DNA of 64,000 nt, taken from contig OZ250173.1 in the NCBI GenBank assembly GCA_965238075.1, positions 2,592,001 through 2,656,000 of the forward strand, given 5' to 3'. The translations under genes and the position numbers were made by a program. This document shows, piece after piece, positions 3,936 through 36,019 of the stretch; position 1 is the stretch's first letter; the number at the start of each line of letters is the position of its first letter. This DNA comes from Candidatus Entotheonellaceae bacterium. Lineage in GTDB: Bacteria; Tectomicrobia; Entotheonellia; Entotheonellales; Entotheonellaceae. The notes beneath the pieces are model-generated. The model was not told the origin of the DNA, did no database searches, and worked only from the letters and a program-made list of their open reading frames with translations.

Positions 3936-5227
3936 AAATCCAGGCACCCCTGCTTACCAAAGCCATAAAAGTCATGCAGATGGGTAACGCCGTATCTGCC
4001 GTGGATCGGCGGCTTTTCCTCGTACCAATTTGGGTCAGGCTGGCGCAGCCCGAGAACGCGCTCCACCTTTGGAAAGGTGACCTCGACGCCGCCGGTGCCC
4101 GTGCTCACCGCTGACACGATCTCCGGCACGGACATCAGCAACGGCGGCGCATTGCCATTTTCGTTGTCTTCCTCTTCGGTCATGAGGACCGTATCCACCC
4201 CCACCCGTTCGAGTGCCTGAACCGTGAGAACCGTTTCCACAAAGCGCTGACCGCGCTGATTGGTAGTCACAATGGCCCCGTTGGCGCCCAGGGCAGAGGC
4301 CATCTGCGCCGCCCGATTTGCCATGAGTTGTTTTTCGGCTTGGGCTTCCCAATTGCTGCGTACCACGATGCAACCGACAAAATTGAAGTCCTGGCCATGA
4401 CGCGAGCACAGGTAGGGCACGATCGTTTCCATGATGGGCCAGGTAAAATGTTCCATGTAGGTGCCGAAAACAGCGCCATCGATCATCTCCGTGGGTCGCA
4501 GAAGCCAGGGTTCGGTGAGGCGTCCGATACCGTACACGTTGGTGCCCAGGCTGGTACGTGGACCAAACCGGTACTCCGCCGAAGCCAAGGCCGGGACAAA
4601 CACGATATTGGGTAAGGCGTTGTCACGATAGTCAAGATCGTACGTGGTGATCTCGTGCGGTTCAAAGCCTCGTGTAGTCTCCGCCAGGCGGTCGTTGAGC
4701 TTCAGCATGGCGGCATTGCTCGCCCGGTTCCAGTCATCGGCATAGGATTCCTGGTGCGGTTCCATTTGCAAACAGAGGTTGATGGTGTGGGCAAAAGGGG
4801 TTACGGCACCCGGTCCCGACATATCGATAAAGGTGATGTCGCTGCGGCCCTCGACGGATGTGGCCCCCCACCAGTGCGCCCCGTCGGGGTTGAAACCGGG
4901 CATTTCGGAGCACGCGATGAGGGTCATACCGCCCAGGCGATGGGTGCGGCCTTGCCCCACTGTGGTCACGTCGCGCCCGGAGATACCGGGATAGGTGACC
5001 CCCGGACCGGATACTTTGACCTTTGGCTCAACGATGTCTCGGATCTGCACAATGCGCACCGAGTCCCCGGGGCGGGTCACGTCAATGTCTGCCCAGGCGA
5101 TATAGGGGTCTTCCATGACCAAGGCGAGAAGCTCGTCTTTGTTGACGCTCAGGACGCCGTCTTGCCAATGCGTCTGCGTTCCGAACACGATGTCACGGAC
5201 TGGAAACGTGCCGACTTCAAGTTTCAT
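3932..5227 (-). CDS. Glycine/sarcosine/betaine reductase component B, alpha/beta proprotein-like subunit (GrdE/GrdI family)
   Basis: MKLEVGTFPVRDIVFG, PGDSVRI, DIVEPKVKV, VGQGRTHRL, FIDMSGPGA, LRPTEMIDGA; ATG overlaps the stop of the upstream selenoprotein (ATGA). Confidence 0.85.
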   Translation of the reverse strand: MKLEVGTFPVRDIVFGTQTHWQDGVLSVNKDELLALVMEDPYIAWADIDVTRPGDSVRIVQIRDIVEPKVKVSGPGVTYPGISGRDVTTVGQGRTHRLGGMTLIACSEMPGFNPDGAHWWGATSVEGRSDITFIDMSGPGAVTPFAHTINLCLQMEPHQESYADDWNRASNAAMLKLNDRLAETTRGFEPHEITTYDLDYRDNALPNIVFVPALASAEYRFGPRTSLGTNVYGIGRLTEPWLLRPTEMIDGAVFGTYMEHFTWPIMETIVPYLCSRHGQDFNFVGCIVVRSNWEAQAEKQLMANRAAQMASALGANGAIVTTNQRGQRFVETVLTVQALERVGVDTVLMTEEEDNENGNAPPLLMSVPEIVSAVSTGTGGVEVTFPKVERVLGLRQPDPNWYEEKPPIHGRYGVTHLHDFYGFGKQGCLDF

Positions 5228-6567
5228 CGTGAGACGTCCTCCAGCACCGTCTGGTCGGGCTCGAAGAGAGTTGGTATGGATACGGGCGTGGTCAGGGCGT
5301 TTAGGGCAGTCGTGACGATGCGCGCTCTGAGTTCGTGGTCTCTGTCCTCGGATAAAGCCGGGTCCCCGCACACATGAGGCACACGCACGCCTCGAACGAC
5401 ACGGCTGGCGCCGACCGAGAGTGGAATGGCCGGCATAGCCGTCATCATACCCACAGGAATTCCTGCCCTCTCAATTTCCTTGGCTAACGTTGCACCGCAA
5501 CGGTTACAGCTGCCTCACGTGGCCACCAGCAAAACGCCATCCACGTGGTTCGCGGTCAGTTCTGCGGCAATCTCACCGCCCATGCGTCTGGCAGCGCTTA
5601 CCGCCGTAGCGTTGCCGGTGGTCGAGAAAAACTGTGGGTAGACATGCTTGATGTGCCCAGCATCTTCGAGATAACGCACGGTACTCAAGGGCATGGCGTA
5701 ATTGGGATCCTTGGTGTTGAGGATGAGGGTGCCGAAGCCACCGTGTACCGACTCCCATTCTTCCACAGTCAGGGAGCTGACTTGCTCGATGTCGTATTTG
5801 AAAAACTGTTCCGCCTTAGAACCCACCAAGCGGTCCCGGTTACCGCGAGGCACCAAGCCACCGCTGGAGACCAGCCCGATGACGGCATCTTTCAGGTCGC
5901 GTAACGGTGGAGCGGGTGTGACGTCGTCGTATCCGGTGAGGCACATTTCAGAGTTGTAAGGTTTTCCCGCCATGCGGGCCAGCAACATATCGGCTGCTCT
6001 TCCATAACCGTACTTCTCGTGCATCACCTCTTGGCGTCTGCCAGTAGGGACATAACCCGCAGCGACCGCCGGCCCCAACTCTGTACCGCGGACCCGTTTA
6101 AGGGCCAGCGTAGCCATCTGGCGCAATATCGCAACCATCTCGGTGCTGTCCGTGCCAGTAGATACGGCCAGTACATCGCTCCGGTACGTGAGTATTCCCG
6201 CGTTATCAGGATGCATGCCCGTAACGGCAGGGATGTTTCGAGCGGTGGCGATACGACACACCTCCGCGCAAGCCAGCCCGTATCGTCCGGCGTCAAAAGC
6301 CGGACCCGCGATGACCACGTCGGGCCTAAGTTCGTCAAGATACCTTTCCACCGCGGGTTTGGCAGCGTCCAACTCTTCAGTAAAATAGTTGTCACCCGCA
6401 ATGAGGGTCCCAACAATCGTCGCTTGGTCACCCAAGGCGCCCTGGAGCGCACGACCGGGTCCTACCGGTCCCGGTTTGACCTGGACCGGCTCGTACGCCT
6501 GTGCTTCGCCACCAATGCCGCCGAAAAACTGGTTCAAGTAGTGCACGACTCGGATTGCTTCTGCCAT
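5224..6567 (-). CDS. Glycine/sarcosine/betaine reductase selenoprotein B (GrdB/GrdH family), 447 aa with Sec at codon 351 (TGA 5517-5515)
   Basis: VVHYLNQFFGGIGGE, AGPAFDAGRYG, HGGF; reading through TGA gives VAT-U-GSCNRCGATLAKEIERAGIP, matching the U-x-x-C-x-x-C motif, and the frame stays open to 5224. Confidence 0.92.
5482..5514 (-). promoter_or_regulatory. Putative bacterial SECIS hairpin downstream of the GrdB-like UGA
   Basis: TGA-GGCAGCTGTAAC-CGTTGC-GGT-GCAACG-TTAGCC: 6-bp stem with G-containing apical loop starting 12 nt after UGA. Confidence 0.65.
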
Positions 6568-13217: not shown

Positions 13218-13640
13218 ATGCTTTCCAAATCCGCCGCACGGGCGTTCTTTCTGATCGGCACCGTCGGGTTTTCGGTCATTTTCCTGCTGCTGACGCTCGA
13301 CACCATCCGTCGCGTGCCGGATCAGACCAACGCCGCTAACCTGACGCCGTAGGCGATTGCGGGCAAGCACCTGTGGGACAAGAACAACTGCATGGGCTGC
13401 CACACCATCCTGGGCGAGGGCGCCTATTACGCGCCGGAGCTGACCAAGGTATACGAACGGCGCGGGCCGGCGTTCATCAAGGCGATGTTGCGCGACCCGG
13501 AGGCCATGTATCCCGGGCAGCGGCGCATGGTGAAGTACGACTTCACGGACGAGGAAATGGAGGCCATGGTCGCCTTCCTCAAGTGGATCGGCGAGATGGA
13601 CCTCAACGGCTTTCCGCCCGAGCCCACCTTGCTGCCATGG
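13218..13640 (+). pseudogene. norC: Nitric oxide reductase cytochrome c subunit, in-frame TAG at 13350-13352
   Basis: MLSKSAARAFFLIGT TM anchor; after the stop: GKHLWDKNNCMGCHTILGEGAYYAPELTKV...RRM...GFPP. Confidence 0.85.
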
Positions 13641-13659
13641 CGGTGCAGACGCCGGTGGC

Positions 13660-14456
13660 CAAGGATGCGGTGGCCGCTATTCTGCGCAAGCACGCCCGTG
13701 TGATGTGCGAGGTGCGCCTGCTGCTCGACAAGCTGCGGCATCAACGCCGGTTGCGGAACCGGCAAACCGAGGGGACGGACATTGACGTTGACGCGGTCGT
13801 GGACCGCTACGCCACGGTGCGCGGCGGTCAGCGGCCCGACGACCGGCTGTACCTGGCGCAGCGGCGGCAGCGGCGTGATCTGGTGACCCTGCTGCTGATC
13901 GACATGAGCGCTTCGACCGACGCCTGGATTGAGGGCTCACGGGTACTCGACATCGCCACGGAATCGGCGCTGGTGCTGGGGGAGGTGTTGTCGCAGTGGG
14001 GGGATCGGGTCGGCATGGCCGGGTTCTACAGCAATACCCGGCGTGACTGCCGATTCGTCATGCTGAAGCCGTTTGACGCCGACTGGCACCGCAGCCGAGC
14101 CGCTGCTCACGGGTCTCGAACCGACGGGCTACACCCGCATCGGCCCCGCCGTGCGCCATGGCACCGCGCTGCTGCAGGGCCAGCGGTCCGCCAGGAAGCT
14201 GTTGCTGTTGCTGTTGCTCAGCGACGGCAAGCCGATCGATTACGACCGCTATGAGGGGCGCTACGGCATCGCCGACATTCGCCAGGCCATTCGGGAAGCG
14301 CACCACAGCCGCATCCACACCTACGCCCTGGCCATCGACGTGCAGGCGAAGCTTTACCTGCCGCAGATGTTCGGCAGCGGTTCGTTCCGCATCCTGCCGC
14401 ACCCGACGCATCTGGTGCGCGGCTTGTCCGAGGTGTACGGTCAATTGGCGCGTTGA
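13660..14456 (+). pseudogene. norD: C-terminal vWA part of the NO reductase activation protein, 5'-deleted and frameshifted near 14100
   Basis: RQTEGTDIDVDAVVD, LLIDMSAST in one frame; GYTRIGPAVRH, LSDGKPIDYDRYEGRYGIAD in another. Confidence 0.85.
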
Positions 14457-18149: not shown

Positions 18150-18363
18150 TTGTCGCTTGATCGGTTGCCGCTTAAAGCTAAGTACCCTACCTTAGCCCAT
18201 TGTCTGACTGCAAGTTTTTTTCCGTGCGTTCAGGGGTGTGGAAAGTGAACAGGGTAGAGTCGGTGGATGGTTGACCTCGCCGGGTGGGAGCAGGGATGGC
18301 ATCGGTTGACGACATGACATTGTGTAGCTACGATCTTGTCGTTATGAAATTGAAGCTAAGCCA

Positions 18364-18654
18364 TTGCGCTGGACGTGGGACGACGCCAAGAACCGCGTCA
18401 ATAAACGGAAGCATCGCCTCAGCTTCGAGACGGCGCAATTCGTATTCGATGACCCGCTGTCGGCGCACCGCCCGGATCTGGGTTCGGACGAAGAACGATG
18501 GCACACCATCGGTATGATCAGCGGCGTGGTCGTGATCGTGGCGCATACATGGCCCGAACCGCAACCTGGAAGCCATGTCGAAGTGGGTCGTATCATCAGT
18601 GCTCGGAAAGCCACGACGCATGAAAGGAGAGCCTATGAAGAAGGGAGTTACTAA
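18364..18654 (+). CDS. brnT: BrnT family toxin
   Basis: WDDAKNRVNKRKH.LSFE, EERW.TIG, RIISARKAT.HERR.Y. Confidence 0.9.
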   Translation: MRWTWDDAKNRVNKRKHRLSFETAQFVFDDPLSAHRPDLGSDEERWHTIGMISGVVVIVAHTWPEPQPGSHVEVGRIISARKATTHERRAYEEGSY

Positions 18655-18925
18655 AAAACTCACTCAGGAACAAAAGGCGGAGGTCCGGACGCTTGCGAAC
18701 CTTCCCGACGAGGCGATCGATACCAGCGACGTGCCTGAGATTCTGGATTGGTCCGGTGCTAGGCGCGGTCTCCTGTACCGGCCGGTCAAGCAACAGATCA
18801 CCCTGCGGCTGGATGCCGACGTGGTGTCATGGTTCAAAGCAAACGTTCCGAACGGCCGGGGCTACCAGACCGAGATCAACCGCGTGCTTCGCGAGCATGC
18901 TCGACGAGCTTTGAGTCAGGCGTAG
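18635..18925 (+). CDS. brnA: BrnA family antitoxin
   Basis: IDTSDVPE, YRPVKQQITLRLDADVVSWFK, GYQTEINRVLR; overlaps brnT. Confidence 0.9.
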   Translation: MKKGVTKKLTQEQKAEVRTLANLPDEAIDTSDVPEILDWSGARRGLLYRPVKQQITLRLDADVVSWFKANVPNGRGYQTEINRVLREHARRALSQA

Positions 18926-19066
18926 GGGCACCCGCCCGCCGTTGCCCCATCACAAATTTGCTTTTGCCTTCAAGCCGCAAGGTGTGCTACGGTTGCCGGA
19001 TTCTGCAGGTTGTTCCGATCTCCTCAACACGATCAATCGTTGCAAGACAATAAGCGGGACTCGTCT

Positions 19067-20989
19067 ATGGATGTTTTGACAGGATTAGCCCAGATACGGG
19101 CGGGAATGGATCAGTACGTTGTCGGCCATGACGATGTGAAAGAAGGCATTCTACTTGGTGTCATTGCGCGCGAGCATATCTATCTCGAAGGCCCGCCAGG
19201 GACGGCGAAAACGATGCTGGCCGAGGTGACCTCGGACGCTGCGGAGTTGAAGTTCTTCTTCTATCAGTTGCACCGCGACACCCGTCTGGCGGAATTGGTC
19301 GGCGATACGGTGATTTTCCGTGAGAAGGACGAGTCGGGCGGCGAGGTGATCCGGCAGGTGAACCGCAAGGGCGGCATTCTGACCTCGGAAATCTGCGTGC
19401 TCGACGATATCTCCCGTGCGCCCGGTGAGGCCCTGAACGTCCTGCTTCGCGTGCTCAATGAGCGCAAGTTCGGCGACGACCGCATTCCCCTGCTGACCGC
19501 CATCGCCACCGGGAATCCCACCAAGGAAGACTATTACAACGAGCCCCTGGATCCGGCCAACCTGGACCGCTTCACCATCCAGATGCGCACCCTCGGTCTG
19601 CTGCAGCGCAACATGTGGCAGGCGGCCGCGGCGGTCATTGACCGCTATGCCGACGGCCATCTGAGTCCCGAAGCCTCGCCGCGCGTCACGCGGGCGGTGC
19701 TGGACGGCGCCACCGAACTGCTCCCCAAGGTGGATCTGACGGCGGCGGTGAAGGAACTGTTGCTGGAATTCCTCAACGTGCTGCTGAACGACTACGGCTG
19801 CAATGACAGCAACTCGCTGCTGACGGACCGCACCTTCCTCGTCAAGGCGGTGAAAATCCTCAAGGCCAAGGCCGTGCTCGAGGGCCGCGACCACTGCGTG
19901 CCCGAAGACTTGCACGTCCTCAAATACCTCACGGCGTTCCGCATTCCCGAGGAACTGCACAACCGCCTCGATGAGATCATCGACCAGCTGCTGCGAAAAA
20001 AAAAAGTTGAGCCAGAAGACGACGACACCGTCGAGCAACTGAGCGAGGCGCAGTCCGAGGAGCGTTCGGACGGGCAGCCGCGCACCGATTACACCGCTCA
20101 GGAAGCGAACGTCGATCACCGCAAGCAGGAACTCGAGCTCGGCGACATGGTGCAGCAGTCCCTCAGCCCGAACGCCGACGATGACGGTGAGAAAGCCGAG
20201 CTGAACCTCGATAACGAGTCGATCGACAACATCGAGGTGCTGCTCAAGGTCCTGAAGGGCCGCATCGAAAAGAACCTCGCCGAAAAGGTGCCGCACCGCG
20301 GCGGCCAGCCGCGCAAGTGGCGCCGCATGACGTCGTTCGACGACCTCCTCGACACCGATCCCGTCGAAAGCACCATCTGGTACGAGAATGTCACTCCCCA
20401 ACTGCCCCGCATGCTGTTGCGCGAGCGCCACGACCGCGGCGGCGAGCTCGCCATCCTGCGTGACATCAGTTCGTCCATGGCCGGCATCTACTCCAAGTGG
20501 GCGTCGTCCGTCATCCTGCGCCTGGTGGAGATGGTCCGCAAAAAGCGCATGCGGGTGGGCTATATCGAGTTCAATCACCTGTCCACCAAGTACCAGGTGG
20601 ACGGCAAGTTCTTCATGCGCGACTACGAAAAGATGACGCGCCGCGCCCTGCACCTGCACTGTTCCGGCTGCACCAACTACCAGAATTCCCTGGAGGACGC
20701 GCTGCACGAATTCAAGCGTCTGGGACGCGGCAACCAGCACATCCTCTTCCTGACCGACGGCGTGCCCACCCAGGGCGACTGGGAAGTGAAAGCCGAGCGC
20801 GCCCTGGCGCAGGAGTTGAACGTTTCCATTCACACCATTTTCATCGGCAAGAACAAGTGCCCGCGCATCCTGGAAATCCTCTCCGAGGAGACCAACGGCG
20901 CGCAGTTTCAGGCCTCGACGGATCGCTACGGCGTCATTCGTATTGAAGAGCGCCATTCGCAGCAGGCCCCTGAACTGGTTGCGCACTAA
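19067..20989 (+). CDS. RavA/MoxR-like AAA+ ATPase fused to a C-terminal vWA (ViaA-like) domain, paralog 1
   Basis: Walker A GPPGTAKT, Walker B VLDDI, LNER, LDRF; acidic linker; MIDAS DISSS, TNY, LTDG. Confidence 0.85.
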   Translation: MDVLTGLAQIRAGMDQYVVGHDDVKEGILLGVIAREHIYLEGPPGTAKTMLAEVTSDAAELKFFFYQLHRDTRLAELVGDTVIFREKDESGGEVIRQVNRKGGILTSEICVLDDISRAPGEALNVLLRVLNERKFGDDRIPLLTAIATGNPTKEDYYNEPLDPANLDRFTIQMRTLGLLQRNMWQAAAAVIDRYADGHLSPEASPRVTRAVLDGATELLPKVDLTAAVKELLLEFLNVLLNDYGCNDSNSLLTDRTFLVKAVKILKAKAVLEGRDHCVPEDLHVLKYLTAFRIPEELHNRLDEIIDQLLRKKKVEPEDDDTVEQLSEAQSEERSDGQPRTDYTAQEANVDHRKQELELGDMVQQSLSPNADDDGEKAELNLDNESIDNIEVLLKVLKGRIEKNLAEKVPHRGGQPRKWRRMTSFDDLLDTDPVESTIWYENVTPQLPRMLLRERHDRGGELAILRDISSSMAGIYSKWASSVILRLVEMVRKKRMRVGYIEFNHLSTKYQVDGKFFMRDYEKMTRRALHLHCSGCTNYQNSLEDALHEFKRLGRGNQHILFLTDGVPTQGDWEVKAERALAQELNVSIHTIFIGKNKCPRILEILSEETNGAQFQASTDRYGVIRIEERHSQQAPELVAH

Positions 20990-20997
20990 GGGCATGT

Positions 20998-21028
20998 TGT
21001 CGGAATACGCTTTGCTAATCCGACCTAC
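20998..21028. repeat. GTAG-type REP, family C
   Basis: tgtcggaatacgctttgctaatccgacctac. Confidence 0.7.
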
Positions 21029-21076
21029 GTGTTGTGAAGGTTTGTCTTTACTAAACACTGTTTTAAGGAGAATGAC

Positions 21077-21976
21077 ATGCTGTTGGAGGGCAAGGTCGCC
21101 GTGGTCACGGGCGGTGGCAACGGCATCGGGCGTGAGATCAGCAAGCTGATGGGCGCCGAGGGCGCCAAGGTGGTCGTGAACGACCTGGGGACGGCTGTTG
21201 ACGGGGCAGGCGAATCGAGTTCCGCGGCCGATCAGACCGTGCAGATGATCAAGGACGCCGGCGGCGAGGCGACGCCGAATTACGAGAGTGTGGCGACCCC
21301 GGAGGGCGGCGAGAGCATCATCCAGACTGCGGTGGATACGTACGGCAAGCTGGATATTCTGGTGCACGTGGCCGGCATTTTGCGCGACCGCATGATTTTC
21401 AACATGAGCGTCGAGGAATGGGACGCGGTGATCAACGTGCACCTGCGCGGCGCCTATTGCGTCAATAAGCCGGCCTGCGTCCTGATGCGGCAGCAGAAGA
21501 GCGGCTGCATCATCAACTTCTCGTCGATTTCCGGTGCCGGCAACTCCGGGCAGGCCAACTACGCGGCGGCCAAGGCGGGCATTCTCGGCTTGACGCGCAC
21601 CATTGCGCGCGACATGGCGAAATACGGCGTGCGCGCCAATGCCATCTGGCCGGGTGCGGACACCCGCATGACCGCCACCGTGCCTGAATCGGCACGCCAG
21701 ATTCGCTCCGAGCGCGGCCTGGGCGAGATGCGCATGTCGGCCATTCGCCGACCCGAAAGCGTCGCCTCGGTGGTGGCCTTCCTGGCTTCGGACATGGCCG
21801 AGAACATTACCGGCTGGACGGTCGGCATCATCGGCGACCGCCTGTCGCTGATCGACGACCCGGTGCCCGTGAAGACGGTATTTTGCGAGGGCGGCTGGAC
21901 GCTGGACCAGGTTGCCGAATGGTGGCCGGAGACCTTCGGGACCGACTTGCGCCACCTGGATCAGCCGCAGCAGTAA
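21077..21976 (+). CDS. SDR oxidoreductase (hydroxyacyl-CoA dehydrogenase-like), copy 1
   Basis: TGGGNGIG, VVVNDLG, AGILRDRM, S...YAAAK. Confidence 0.92.
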   Translation: MLLEGKVAVVTGGGNGIGREISKLMGAEGAKVVVNDLGTAVDGAGESSSAADQTVQMIKDAGGEATPNYESVATPEGGESIIQTAVDTYGKLDILVHVAGILRDRMIFNMSVEEWDAVINVHLRGAYCVNKPACVLMRQQKSGCIINFSSISGAGNSGQANYAAAKAGILGLTRTIARDMAKYGVRANAIWPGADTRMTATVPESARQIRSERGLGEMRMSAIRRPESVASVVAFLASDMAENITGWTVGIIGDRLSLIDDPVPVKTVFCEGGWTLDQVAEWWPETFGTDLRHLDQPQQ

Positions 21977-27267: not shown

Positions 27268-28179
27268 ATGGAATCAGAAAGACCTCGGTTCCGGAATGCC
27301 GAGTACTACAGCTCGTTTACTCTTGAAGAGTTGGGAAACGCAAACCGGGAAACCCAGAAGGAGGTGATGCGTAACTGGTTTTTTGATAACTACGAAGATC
27401 CAGTGGAGCGTACGCCTTATGAATCGAGAGAAGGGGGGTATATTTACATCTGGGGTGGCCCGTACAAAGCCGATTGGGAGATCAGTGGGGTTTTCGAAGG
27501 ATACATCCCTGATGACGTCATTCAGGAACTCGTCGATGAGTTGGAATACTATTGTTCTGACTGGACAAGCGCGCCTCGGGATGACGATTATGATGACTAT
27601 TATTCGTCGGTCCTACTATCGAACCCTGAGTTCCACAAGGACCTGGTAGAAAGCCTGGAGAGAGTTAACACGCTCCTCGACGTCGAAGTAGTTGAACAAC
27701 TGCGGCAGCATTACCTACGTCTGCTTTACATAAACGTCATAACGGCTCTAGAAAGTTTTCTGTCTGATGGCTTCATCAATACGGTGATGTCAGACCCCGC
27801 ACTGGTCCGAAAATTCGTTGAGACAAACCCAGACTTTGCAAGAAAGAAATTCGCACTCAGCGAGCTATTCGAGCAGGCGGACGTAATCGAGGACAAGGTA
27901 AAGCGCTACCTCAGCTCACTCATGTGGCACAATCTTGAGAAAATCAAACCCATGTATAAAGAAACACTCGATATTGAGTTCCCGAAAGACCTTGCACATC
28001 TATTTCGGGCAATACTCATGCGACACGACTTGGTCCACCGCAACGGAAAGACCAAAGACGGCGGAGAGATTTTGCTAAACCGGAACGACGTTTCTGACCT
28101 CATAGAGCAAGTCCGAACTTTTGGCGAACATGTGGACGGCCAATTTGGATCTAATCTGCCCGATGATTTGGGGTTCTAG
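27268..28179 (+). CDS. Low-GC hypothetical protein with a C-terminal HEPN-like R-x4-H motif; integron-cassette-like
   Basis: ITALESFLSD helix and RHDLVHRNG motif; visibly AT-richer than neighbours; flanked by complementary core sites. Confidence 0.65.
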   Translation: MESERPRFRNAEYYSSFTLEELGNANRETQKEVMRNWFFDNYEDPVERTPYESREGGYIYIWGGPYKADWEISGVFEGYIPDDVIQELVDELEYYCSDWTSAPRDDDYDDYYSSVLLSNPEFHKDLVESLERVNTLLDVEVVEQLRQHYLRLLYINVITALESFLSDGFINTVMSDPALVRKFVETNPDFARKKFALSELFEQADVIEDKVKRYLSSLMWHNLEKIKPMYKETLDIEFPKDLAHLFRAILMRHDLVHRNGKTKDGGEILLNRNDVSDLIEQVRTFGEHVDGQFGSNLPDDLGF

Positions 28180-34013: not shown

Positions 34014-34120
34014 GCTTTGGAGCCGTGCTATCCGTTGTATCTCATGAAGGGAGCGGCGAGAATAAGCCTACGCTTGCGTAAGGCTCCACAGCAGGGCATC
34101 TTCTGACTGGAATCGTCGTG

Positions 34121-36019
34121 ATGCACATTGCCAACGAACTGCAGAAAATCCGCCACAACATGGATGCCTTCGTGATCGGCCACGAGGCGGTGAAGGAAGC
34201 CATGTTGTTGGGCCTCATTGCCCATGAGCATATCTATCTCCAAGGCCCGCCGGGCTGCGCCAAAACCTTGCTGGCGGAGGTGGTCGCCGCCTCGGTGAAT
34301 TGGCCGTACTTTTTTTGCCAACTACATCGTGATACCCGCCTGACTGAACTGATCGGGGACGTAATTCTGGAAAAATCCGTGCTGCCCGATAGCGGGGGAG
34401 AGGTCGTCCGCCAGCGGGTACGCGAGGGCGGGGTGCTCACCTCTGAGGTGGTGGTGCTGGATGATATTACCCGAGCGCCCGGGGAGGCCTTGAATGTCCT
34501 GCTGCGGTTGCTCAACGAGCGCAAGTACCACGCGCAACCCATCCCGCTGCGCCTGGCCATAGCCACCTCCAATCCCACGGCCGAGACTTATTTCAACGAA
34601 CCGCTCGACCCGGCTCATCTGGACCGCTTCACGCTGCAGCTGCAGACCCGAGGAACCATTTGTACCCAACAGTGGGACAAGGCCGGTGCCATCGTGGACC
34701 TCGGCCACACAACTCCGACAACCCTGACCGTTCGGCATCTGGTCGCCGCTGACCTGCTGGATGAAGCCCACCGGGCCATGCAAGACGTGGACGTGCCGCA
34801 CCACGTGATGCGGGTCTATCGCAATGTCCTCGACATCCTGCAAAACGAGCATGACTGCAACCCCACGAACTCGCTTCTCAGCGACCGCACCATGTTGGTT
34901 AAGGTTCCGGTCATGATCAGGGCCATGGCCGTGCTTGCCGGACGCTCTGTGGCAACGGCTGAAGATTTGCGTGTCTTGAAGTCGATCCTGACCTTCCGGG
35001 TTCCGGAAGCGGTTTATCAGCAGCTTGATGAGATCTTGCAGCGCGCCGCAGCGTTGGCCATGGGGCTGCCAGAGTGGTTCGATGACCAGACGCAGAAACA
35101 GGCAGCCGTCCGGGAAGCTTCAAATGAGGCGCAACGCATTGACGAAATGTCTGATAGTGACTTGGTCGATGAGTTACTGGCAACCCTGAACGTGGGTGAT
35201 GACGTATCTGATCCGCAGGCGCCCCTGCACGTCAACCGGGCGCTGACGTCACCCGAGCGGTTTCAAGAAAGCGCCCGCTACAGGGTGAAAAACCTGGAGT
35301 TGCTTGTCGAGCGAATCAACGGGCGACTGGACCGCCACAGCGCCGCTCCCGAGGCCCATCCGGGCGGCTCGCCTCGCAGTTGGAAACGCATGCGCTCTTT
35401 GCAGGAGTTTCTTGATACCGACGCCGCCGAGATGGCCACCTGGATGGACCGTGTGCATCCCGGTCTGCCGCGCGTCTACAAGAGGGAAAAGAAACATGTA
35501 GGCGGAGACATGGTGATCATCCGTGACGTGAGTGAATCCATGCGGGGCTACTATGCCCGATGGGCGGCTTCGGTGGTGACTGCGTTGGTGCAACTGGTGC
35601 GCAGGAAGCGTATGCGTATCGGATACATCGAGTTCAATCACGTGTCGCGCAAGTACAGCCATGGCGGGCGATTCTTCACACGCGACTACGATCAGATATT
35701 GGCTTTTGCCGCCAATGTGGCCTGTTCGGGCGTGACCAATTACCAGCTTCCCTTGCACGATGCGCTAACGGAGTTGCGCGCCTGGGGCACCCCCAATAAG
35801 CATGTTGTTTTGCTCACCGACGGCGAACCCACCCACGGCGACTGGCTGGTGCGCGCCGAGCGGCGCCTGGCCAAGGACCTGCGGGTCACCATCCACACGC
35901 TCTTCATTGGCGACATGGAATGCCCGGAGATCCTGGACGTCCTCTCCGAAGAATCGGGCGGCTGCCAGTTGCTGGCGGCGCCGGATGGACAAGGGGGGCT
36001 GAGCCTGCAGGAGCGCTAG
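34121..36019 (+). CDS. RavA/MoxR-like AAA+ ATPase fused to a vWA domain, paralog 2
   Basis: GPPGCAKT, VLDDI, LDRF, MIDAS DVSES, LTDG; colinear with 19067-20989. Confidence 0.85.
   Translation: MHIANELQKIRHNMDAFVIGHEAVKEAMLLGLIAHEHIYLQGPPGCAKTLLAEVVAASVNWPYFFCQLHRDTRLTELIGDVILEKSVLPDSGGEVVRQRVREGGVLTSEVVVLDDITRAPGEALNVLLRLLNERKYHAQPIPLRLAIATSNPTAETYFNEPLDPAHLDRFTLQLQTRGTICTQQWDKAGAIVDLGHTTPTTLTVRHLVAADLLDEAHRAMQDVDVPHHVMRVYRNVLDILQNEHDCNPTNSLLSDRTMLVKVPVMIRAMAVLAGRSVATAEDLRVLKSILTFRVPEAVYQQLDEILQRAAALAMGLPEWFDDQTQKQAAVREASNEAQRIDEMSDSDLVDELLATLNVGDDVSDPQAPLHVNRALTSPERFQESARYRVKNLELLVERINGRLDRHSAAPEAHPGGSPRSWKRMRSLQEFLDTDAAEMATWMDRVHPGLPRVYKREKKHVGGDMVIIRDVSESMRGYYARWAASVVTALVQLVRRKRMRIGYIEFNHVSRKYSHGGRFFTRDYDQILAFAANVACSGVTNYQLPLHDALTELRAWGTPNKHVVLLTDGEPTHGDWLVRAERRLAKDLRVTIHTLFIGDMECPEILDVLSEESGGCQLLAAPDGQGGLSLQER

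Follow-up and report, generated by a model that had tools for sequence, protein, structure and literature searches.

A conserved A-run at the AAA+/vWA junction of a MoxR-type fusion gene as a likely programmed slippage site

We have analysed a 64-kb stretch of DNA from a Candidatus Entotheonellaceae bacterium, hereafter called the window, and in it a gene, here named P1, that encodes a MoxR-type AAA+ ATPase fused by way of an acidic linker to a von Willebrand factor A (vWA) domain. A run of ten adenines (A10) lies where the ATPase ends and the linker begins, and comparison with related genes makes it likely that this run serves as a programmed site of slippage, conserved within a clade of fusion genes of the MoxR-type AAA+-vWA kind. 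Judged from the same comparison, two products of the gene are probable, the long fusion and a short chain with only the ATPase. Support from the comparison is unusually complete, with in-frame, -1 and split-gene states found in one family of sequences. The kind of site is known from dnaX and from chlD or 'Mg chelatase' genes, and the family is a new one for such a site in so far as our searches found no report of it.

Position of the run in gene P1

The features of the gene are listed below by their position in the window, with the basis of each in brackets.

19067..20989, plus strand: gene P1, a MoxR-type AAA+ / disordered acidic linker / vWA fusion of 640 amino acids in the zero frame (open reading frame, translation, Pfam)
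19067..20005, plus strand: AAA+ module with lid domain, its final helix ending in the run-encoded K311-K313 (Pfam, AlphaFold, PDB matches)
19996..20005, plus strand: A10 slippery run, (CG)A AAA AAA AAA, where slippage of RNA polymerase and/or -1 ribosomal frameshifting is proposed (sequence, conservation)
20008..20010, plus strand: TGA stop of the -1 frame, which reads AGT TGA; one extra A or a -1 ribosomal shift would give the end ...RKKKS (sequence)
20009..20218, plus strand: acidic linker, residues 315-384, predicted disordered (predicted local distance difference test score, pLDDT, below 50)
20020..20033, plus strand: 5-bp hairpin CGACG/CGTCG, probably not functional (sequence; neither conserved nor unusually stable)
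20040..20042, plus strand: TGA stop of the +1 frame, ending 37 nt past the run; one A fewer would give ...RKKK and 11 further residues (sequence)
20447..20908, plus strand: vWA domain with the MIDAS motif D466-x-S468-x-S470 at nt 20462-20476 (Pfam VWA, alignment)

Across the junction the zero frame reads CTG CTG CGA AAA AAA AAA GTT GAG. The initial annotation had described the A10 as unusual in this GC-rich DNA, with a stop following at once in the -1 frame and soon after in the +1 frame, and this description was borne out. The GC content of the window is 57-66% and A10 is its longest homopolymer of any base, the next A runs being 6 nt long and those of the other bases at most 7 nt. The codon choice at the run is far from chance. 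Outside the run the lysines of P1 are encoded by 7 AAA and 24-25 AAG codons, and CGA is used for one of its 49 arginine codons, 37 of which are CGC; this sole CGA (19994-19996) supplies the tenth A of the run. The stop of the -1 frame ends 5 nt past the run, which places it in the lowest 4.2% of sampled positions in the gene. In a recoding review (PMC5009743), slippage of the Thermus dnaX type is characterised by a run of at least nine A or T with close stops in both non-zero frames, and the window gene shows this arrangement, with A10 and stops ending 5 nt and 37 nt past it. A promoter and terminator scan of positions 18300-21300 gave nothing above shuffled expectation.

The mechanical open reading frame (ORF) of the gene reaches upstream to a TTG at 19010, and the homologues start at MDVL..., corresponding to the coordinates given above. 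The protein's N-terminal part matches the Pfam profiles bpMoxR (74.3 bits against a cutoff of 27, E-value 9e-21), AAA_5 (65 against 22), AAA_3 (41.7 against 27) and AAA_lid_8 (26 against 22.8), and the C-terminal part matches VWA (26.1 against 23.8). The MIDAS residues D466, S468 and S470 are invariant across our 37-sequence family alignment. With all profiles above their cutoffs and a RavA-type lid, P1 is a MoxR-class AAA+ ATPase, and with the fold profile and the DxSxS motif it is also a vWA/MIDAS domain protein. The nearest PDB sequences were 2r44 (5e-15) and RavA (1e-9). The same two were the top Foldseek matches of an AlphaFold model built on the 37-sequence alignment, where ChlI (6l8d) came only at rank 8 by fold.

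In this model (mean pLDDT 69) the last AAA+ helix comprises residues 301-314. The run falls exactly on the boundary between ATPase and acidic linker, encoding the last turn of the lid helix, as K311-K313 close the AAA+ helix and the low-pLDDT linker starts at residue 315.

Two closer assignments of the protein were tried and rejected. It is not an E. coli-type RavA ortholog, scoring 51.2 bits with the NF010054 equivalog model against a cutoff of 681 and having its vWA domain fused rather than encoded by a separate gene. Neither is it a ChlD/BchD medium subunit of a chelatase, with 17.0 bits for Pfam Mg_chelatase against a cutoff of 20.3, no domain-level match and none of the NCBIfam chelatase models giving a hit; the scanned neighbours of the window gene and of 12 related loci include no cobN or chlH. 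We also observed that the Walker B region of P1 reads LDD (L112-D113-D114, around nt 19400-19408) and not the usual hhhhDE, both aspartates being invariant in the 37 family members.

Conservation of the run and frame layouts among relatives

The features that the initial annotation proposed to look for in orthologs, namely the A-run, near stops and vWA halves out of frame, were all found. Genome contigs were scanned with the 37-sequence alignment, where the best 80 of 242 relatives resulted in 77 loci. The closest proteins are from Candidatus Entotheonella/Tectimicrobiota at 79-96% identity, and others at 48-60% are from metagenome-assembled genomes (MAGs) labelled Nitrospinota, Abyssobacteria, Dadabacteria and Thermodesulfobacteriota. 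Nearly all of the relatives' proteins have xKKKx or xKKNx at the junction, with variable flanking residues, and K311 and K312 are near-invariant in the protein alignment. At the nucleotide level an unbroken run of nine to twelve adenines (A9-A12) is present at the junction in 72 of the 77 loci, which come from Tectimicrobiota, Nitrospinota, Poribacteria, Abyssobacteria and Dadabacteria/Thermodesulfobacteriota. A search of a plasmid collection by tblastn gave 333 weak MoxR matches, all below 60% identity and none covering 80% of the query, and no relative of the fusion was found there.

From each gene's own usage of AAA and AAG, three AAA codons in a row would, given KKK, be expected in 9.4 of the 72 loci, as compared with the 72 of 72 in which the run is unbroken. 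The run starts at codon position 1, 2 and 3 in 51, 8 and 13 loci, respectively, and occurs in 36 different contexts of six amino acids. In five loci (L010, L011, L012, L022 and L024) QKKN replaces KKK, and the A10 is kept by way of CAA AAA AAA AAC/T. As the run is found in all codon phases and in so many contexts, and is kept by the KKN loci, the constraint is on the DNA or RNA and not on a lysine motif. Conservation at the nucleotide level beyond the need of the protein is what is expected of a recoding site.

The layout of the window gene, with the vWA half in frame, is shared by 27 loci (A9 in 6, A10 in 19, A11 in 1 and A12 in 1). In 43 loci (A9 in 2, A10 in 21 and A11 in 20) the vWA half lies in the -1 frame, and the zero frame ends at a stop 0-8 codons past the run. 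The remaining two, L018 (A12) and L057 (A10, on a short contig), are of a +1 type. In the 26 in-frame loci and the window the stop of the -1 frame ends at a median of 6 nt past the run, compared with a control median of 56 nt. L037 (A12, in frame) and L055 (A11, -1) have near-identical flanks and runs differing by one A. The Entotheonella loci of TSY1 and DD2 (L019 and L020) have A10 followed at once by TAG and the vWA half in the -1 frame, where related proteins read RKKKIVPD in frame.

The out-of-frame vWA halves are intact in all 43 loci of the -1 layout, being open for 328-443 codons and carrying the MIDAS in 43 of 43. The median dN/dS is 0.054 over the first 60 codons past the run and 0.047 over the remainder (98 pairs). 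Hence the family has both in-frame and shifted orthologs with the downstream frame under purifying selection, a second property expected of recoding sites. Further, 25 of the 43 loci are without any ATG, GTG or TTG in the first 54 codons past the run, which makes independent initiation of the vWA half unlikely. We therefore suggest, from the coding sequences, that the stretch directly past the run is translated as a continuation of the ATPase and not from a start codon of its own.

On a gene tree of 70 genes (quick LG+G4, paralog 2 of the window as outgroup, the truncated L018, L023 and L057 excluded) the frame state changes at least 6 times, and 5 of the changes are forced by well-supported branches.

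The databases already hold proteins of the short type. One of them, P0122, with 314 amino acids and 96% identity to the protein of the window, ends in LLRKKKS, the very end that the initial annotation had predicted for an ATPase-only product. Other annotated short relatives end in RKKK, RKKKKK, RKKKSSA or RKKKNSA. The short and the vWA halves are named 'MoxR family ATPase' and 'VWA domain protein' in the databases, and the recoding is unannotated.

The five loci without the run (L013-L016 and L021) have a common organisation of another kind. In all five a run-less fusion is directly followed downstream by a separate AAA+-only gene of 325-338 amino acids, the copy in L013 being cut by the contig end. 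This stand-alone gene ends where the run lies in the other loci, about 24 residues past the FRVPEE motif, and does so without a K-run (IQRVAE). Within about 4 kb of the 72 run-bearing loci no second AAA+ module was found, the one exception being L019, where the gene is duplicated in tandem and the second copy has an A10 as well. The initial annotation had remarked that a second paralog in the window has no such tract, and this is so:

34118..36019, plus strand: paralog 2, a run-less AAA+-vWA fusion with 47% identity to P1, a member of the run-less fusion clade whose genes elsewhere have a stand-alone AAA+ gene of the P1 type behind them

In a tree of the AAA+ modules the stand-alone genes share a strongly supported clade with the run-bearing modules, and the N-terminal modules of the run-less fusions group with paralog 2. 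The comparison thus strongly supports that an AAA+-only chain would be obtained either from a separate gene or by means of the run, depending on the lineage, which is the same pattern as reported for chlI/chlD.

Some further observations were made on these loci. In L019 (Entotheonella sp. DD2) the two tandem gene copies are at about 6-690 and at 4001-5886, and in each of them a TAG comes after the A10 and the vWA half is in the -1 frame. In L014 we looked behind the stand-alone AAA+ gene for a hidden vWA ORF, and no Pfam family was obtained. Close orthologs of the paralog 2 type are few: with at least 76% identity there are 8 clusters, compared with about 74 for P1 with at least 79%. Proteins of this type are also few in Entotheonellaceae, and those with names are from MAGs of SAR324, Lambdaproteobacteria and 'Deltaproteobacteria'. 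The label Dadabacteria does not occur among them, a statement limited by the sparse names, which do not establish absence. Nine Dadabacteria-type loci, L046 (3895-3903), L033, L034, L040, L045, L047, L048, L050 and L051, have a second A9 run about 60 nt upstream of the start, an ATG preceded by GGAGG, and this may be a promoter or leader element.

Mechanism and competing explanations

We propose that RNA polymerase would slip on the run, of at least nine A:T pairs, and give transcripts with a few As gained or lost, to which a -1 ribosomal shift on A_AAA_AAA/G may contribute. For the window gene an unslipped transcript would yield the 640-amino-acid AAA+-linker-vWA chain, and a transcript one base longer or shorter would run into the stop at 20008-20010 or at 20040-20042 and yield an AAA+-only chain of 314-324 amino acids, cut at the end of the lid helix. 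In the relatives of the -1 layout the short chain would be the default and a slip would give the long one. The claim of the initial annotation that recoding gives an ATPase-only chain besides the full fusion thus finds support in the comparison of the 77 loci. That slippage takes place in the source organism, as well as its level, the product ratio and the co-assembly of the chains, is something we only infer, and from sequence.

Transcriptional slippage seems the most likely mode of recoding at the run, since no run among the 72 is shorter than nine, no general stimulatory structure was detected, the run is found in any codon phase, and a -1 shift would not rescue the +1-type loci. According to Atkins et al. 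2016 (PMC5009743), runs of 9 A or T are efficient sites of slippage for bacterial RNA polymerase. It is unlikely, and yet the alternative to be taken most seriously, that the same two products arise mainly by programmed -1 shifts of the ribosome on A_AAA_AAA or A_AAA_AAG. An in-phase heptamer is present in every run, the zero frame of the A11 clade reads AAA AAA AAA AAG, equal to the A_AAA_AAG of E. coli dnaX, and 43 of the 45 out-of-frame loci require exactly a -1 shift; moreover, chlD and 'Mg chelatase' genes use A_AAA_AAR with measured efficiencies of 10-63% (PMC5009743, PMC3711429). A heptamer would suffice for the ribosome, yet the shortest of the 72 runs has nine bases, the length of efficient RNA polymerase slippage, and the two +1-type loci could not be rescued by a -1 shift. 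Stimulatory structure was not general in 73 sequences: compared with control windows of the same genes, neither the 45 nt after the run nor the 45 nt before it showed higher stability (mean z -0.28 and -0.42, respectively). In the Entotheonella clade there was none. The weak 5-bp hairpin noted by the initial annotation in the window does exist, but it is neither unusually stable, the 45 nt 3' of the window run having z = +0.07 against other windows of the gene, nor conserved. We rejected it as a stimulator, as the consensus fold of 11 Entotheonella-clade sequences has 8 pairs, -4.6 kcal/mol and no compensatory change. Conserved hairpins downstream of the run are present in one Thermodesulfobacteriota clade (L063-L077) and speak for the ribosome there, although the first begins 21 nt past the run, which is long for the spacer of a -1 frameshift stimulator. 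As an observation on that clade, the two hairpins are located 21-53 and 58-89 nt past the run, with a consensus of -27 kcal/mol and 2 pairs with compensatory changes.

The run might instead be a contingency locus at the DNA level, where replication slippage would switch cells between fusion-only and ATPase-only states by phase variation, with no recoding by RNA polymerase or ribosome. Homopolymers also slip during replication (PMC3711429), and Entotheonellaceae proteins of 77-96% identity end in RKKKS, RKKK, RKKKKK or RKKKNSA or read in frame through RKKKKVVPEE, so that the run length does vary at the level of DNA or assembly. Over whole clades, on the other hand, run length and frame are stable (20 loci with A11/-1 and 12 with A10/-1, and about 6 changes among 70 genes), and a vWA half which is permanently out of frame, with a dN/dS of about 0.05 and the MIDAS in all 43 loci, must be expressed routinely. 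The gene is also cytoplasmic and housekeeping-like and encodes no surface antigen, and we consider phase variation improbable as the main mode. Still less credible, to the point that we hardly give it weight, is that the lid helix ends in a functional basic KKK motif, to which the A-run is incidental, the out-of-frame versions being split genes with their own vWA initiation, pseudogenes or assembly errors. The near-invariance of K311 and K312 would agree with this, and so would the fact that the relatives are all MAGs, some of them long-read assemblies. Against it stand the 72 unbroken runs where 9.4 were expected, the A10 kept in the KKN variants and the only CGA of the window gene extending the run. 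The -1 layout with a conserved stop position in 43 loci of many independent assemblies is equally hard to explain in this way, as are the selection on the linker right past the run, the 25 of 43 loci with no nearby start codon, and the stand-alone AAA+ homologues that end at the same position without lysines.

Several points weigh against programmed slippage in P1, or limit how far it may be extended. As all relatives are MAG assemblies, some of them from long reads, the length of a homopolymer can be mis-called, and the two +1-type loci may be assembly errors of this sort. Other A or T runs of at least nine are not very rare in the AT-rich relatives, where 17 were counted in 643 kb of the same loci, and in the Dadabacteria-type in-frame loci with A9 the alternative-frame stops are no closer than chance. 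Among anchor-bearing representatives at 50% clustering, 9 of the 10 full-length, more distant MoxR-vWA fusions are without a K-run; hence the slippery site is specific to one clade, and, with paralog 2 also run-less, the short chain is not a general need of MoxR-vWA fusions. Finally, the in-frame and -1 layouts should give opposite ratios of long to short chain, which is hard to reconcile with one fixed stoichiometry.

By analogy we infer that slippage might set the subunit stoichiometry of a complex. Both chains might join one AAA+ hexamer, which would then carry fewer than six vWA arms, in parallel to the layouts of CbbQ6O1 and NorQD; a layout of one vWA per hexamer would be matched if most chains of the ring were short and one or a few were long. 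We further speculate, as a possible but doubtful extension, that the run is an evolvable dial where changes of a single A flip the default chain, as they would have done at least 6 times, and that the short P1 chain is the ancestral essential product. The latter thought comes from the stand-alone orthologs behind the paralog-2-type fusions in all five run-less loci. In the genome of the window the short P1 chain might then also enter a mixed ring with the paralog 2 fusion, a MoxR counterpart of ChlI/ChlD that would have arisen independently by the same kind of recoding.

Genomic surroundings and comparison with known systems

No partner gene shared across phyla was found among the neighbours of the window gene and 12 loci. 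The Entotheonella loci have a 2-hydroxyacid dehydrogenase, SDRs and GcvT nearby, the Dadabacteria-type loci YceG, ProB and GST, and L009 and L022 a peptidase S58 gene. A linked beta-propeller gene, as in the MoxR-vWA-beta-propeller ternary system, was likewise not found by the window gene or the 12 loci, and only L022 has a PD40-repeat protein nearby, on the opposite strand. Membership in that system, the context of Pfam bpMoxR, was rejected, as the neighbours are unrelated housekeeping genes.

Directly 5' of P1 there is a BrnT toxin / BrnA antitoxin pair at 18364-18925 on the plus strand (BrnT_toxin, 1.4e-22, 18364-18654; BrnA_antitoxin, 3.6e-15, 18575-18925). Two other plus-strand ORFs gave weak matches below the cutoffs, one at 27268-28179 to HEPN RiboL-PSP (E = 1e-4, 22.7 bits against a cutoff of 28.4) and one at 13373-14254 to DUF58. 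DUF58 proteins are frequent companions of MoxR/vWA operons. P1 and paralog 2 were the only MoxR ATPases found in the window.

If our reading of the run is true, a deeply conserved, multi-phylum recoding site exists in a MoxR-type AAA+-vWA family that is now annotated either as one fusion or as two unrelated genes, and dozens of gene pairs in Dadabacteria and Thermodesulfobacteriota may be single recoded genes. It would also provide an argument from evolution that an excess of ATPase chains over vWA arms appears to be required in MoxR machines, as such an excess is attained through slippage in some lineages and through a separate short gene in others. The question of stoichiometry would become directly testable in a single-gene system, and the in-frame, -1 and split-gene states among close relatives would form a natural series for the evolution of transcriptional slippage sites. 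The initial annotation knew of no description of such recoding for RavA/ViaA-like genes, and our literature searches for MoxR with transcriptional slippage or frameshift agree, giving no report of it in a MoxR-type family (for frameshift among the papers listed, as judged by titles and the starts of abstracts). The words 'MoxR' and 'von Willebrand' do not occur in the examined text of the recoding review PMC5009743, nor 'MoxR' and 'ATPase' in that of PMC3711429.

The parallel to dnaX and chlD drawn at the outset is confirmed in print (PMC5009743, PMC3711429, PMC9227772). In Thermus thermophilus dnaX a run of nine bases with close stops in both other frames gives gamma and tau at about 1:1 by transcriptional slippage, and in E. 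coli dnaX -1 frameshifting takes place at A_AAA_AAG (PMC5009743). Reversed dnaX layouts, in which the long form needs the shift, also exist (PMC5009743, PMC3711429). With dnaX the window gene shares an AAA+ protein made with or without its C-terminal domains, and with the Thermus design a long product in the zero frame, a long A tract and close stops in both other frames. The two differ in that dnaX encodes a clamp loader and P1 a MoxR chaperone-like ATPase, and the P1 family is known here from its sequences.

Another close system is the frameshifted chlD. The 'magnesium chelatase' genes have overlapping ORFs with a conserved A_AAA_AAR (PMC5009743), for which 10-63% frameshifting was measured (Antonov et al. 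2013, PMC3711429), and small and medium subunits come from the one chlD gene (Kuznetsov et al. 2022, PMC9227772; PMC3711429). In common with the P1 family it has the order AAA+, linker and vWA-MIDAS with an A-rich slippery site at the end of the AAA+ module, and its orthologs are in part single fusions and in part ORFs that overlap in the -1 frame. Also shared are the proposed small AAA+-only and medium AAA+-vWA subunits, with a separate small-subunit gene replacing the signal in other genomes. It differs in having a ChlI/BchI-like AAA+ module where that of P1 is MoxR/RavA-like (bpMoxR, AAA_3, AAA_lid_8), and a heptamer with downstream structure where the P1 family has 9-12 As.

Among the MoxR machines, RavA-ViaA, CbbQ-CbbO and NorQ-NorD share with P1 the combination of a MoxR-class AAA+ hexamer and a MIDAS-bearing vWA partner (PMC4660213, PMC13036017). 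CbbQ/CbbO is reported as CbbQ6O1, and its authors hypothesise that AAA+ hexamers generally work with one vWA protein each, Rea1 being a fused analogue (PMC4660213); NorD inserts one finger into the NorQ pore (PMC4660213, PMC13036017). This stoichiometry and this finger are a reason to have more ATPase than vWA chains. In these systems ATPase and vWA protein are encoded by separate genes with no recoding, whereas P1 is one gene split by a slippery run. In Rea1/midasin, which unlike P1 is one eukaryotic polypeptide, a long acidic linker joins a single MIDAS/vWA to six AAA+ modules (PMC4660213), an arrangement that five short chains and one long chain of P1 would mimic.

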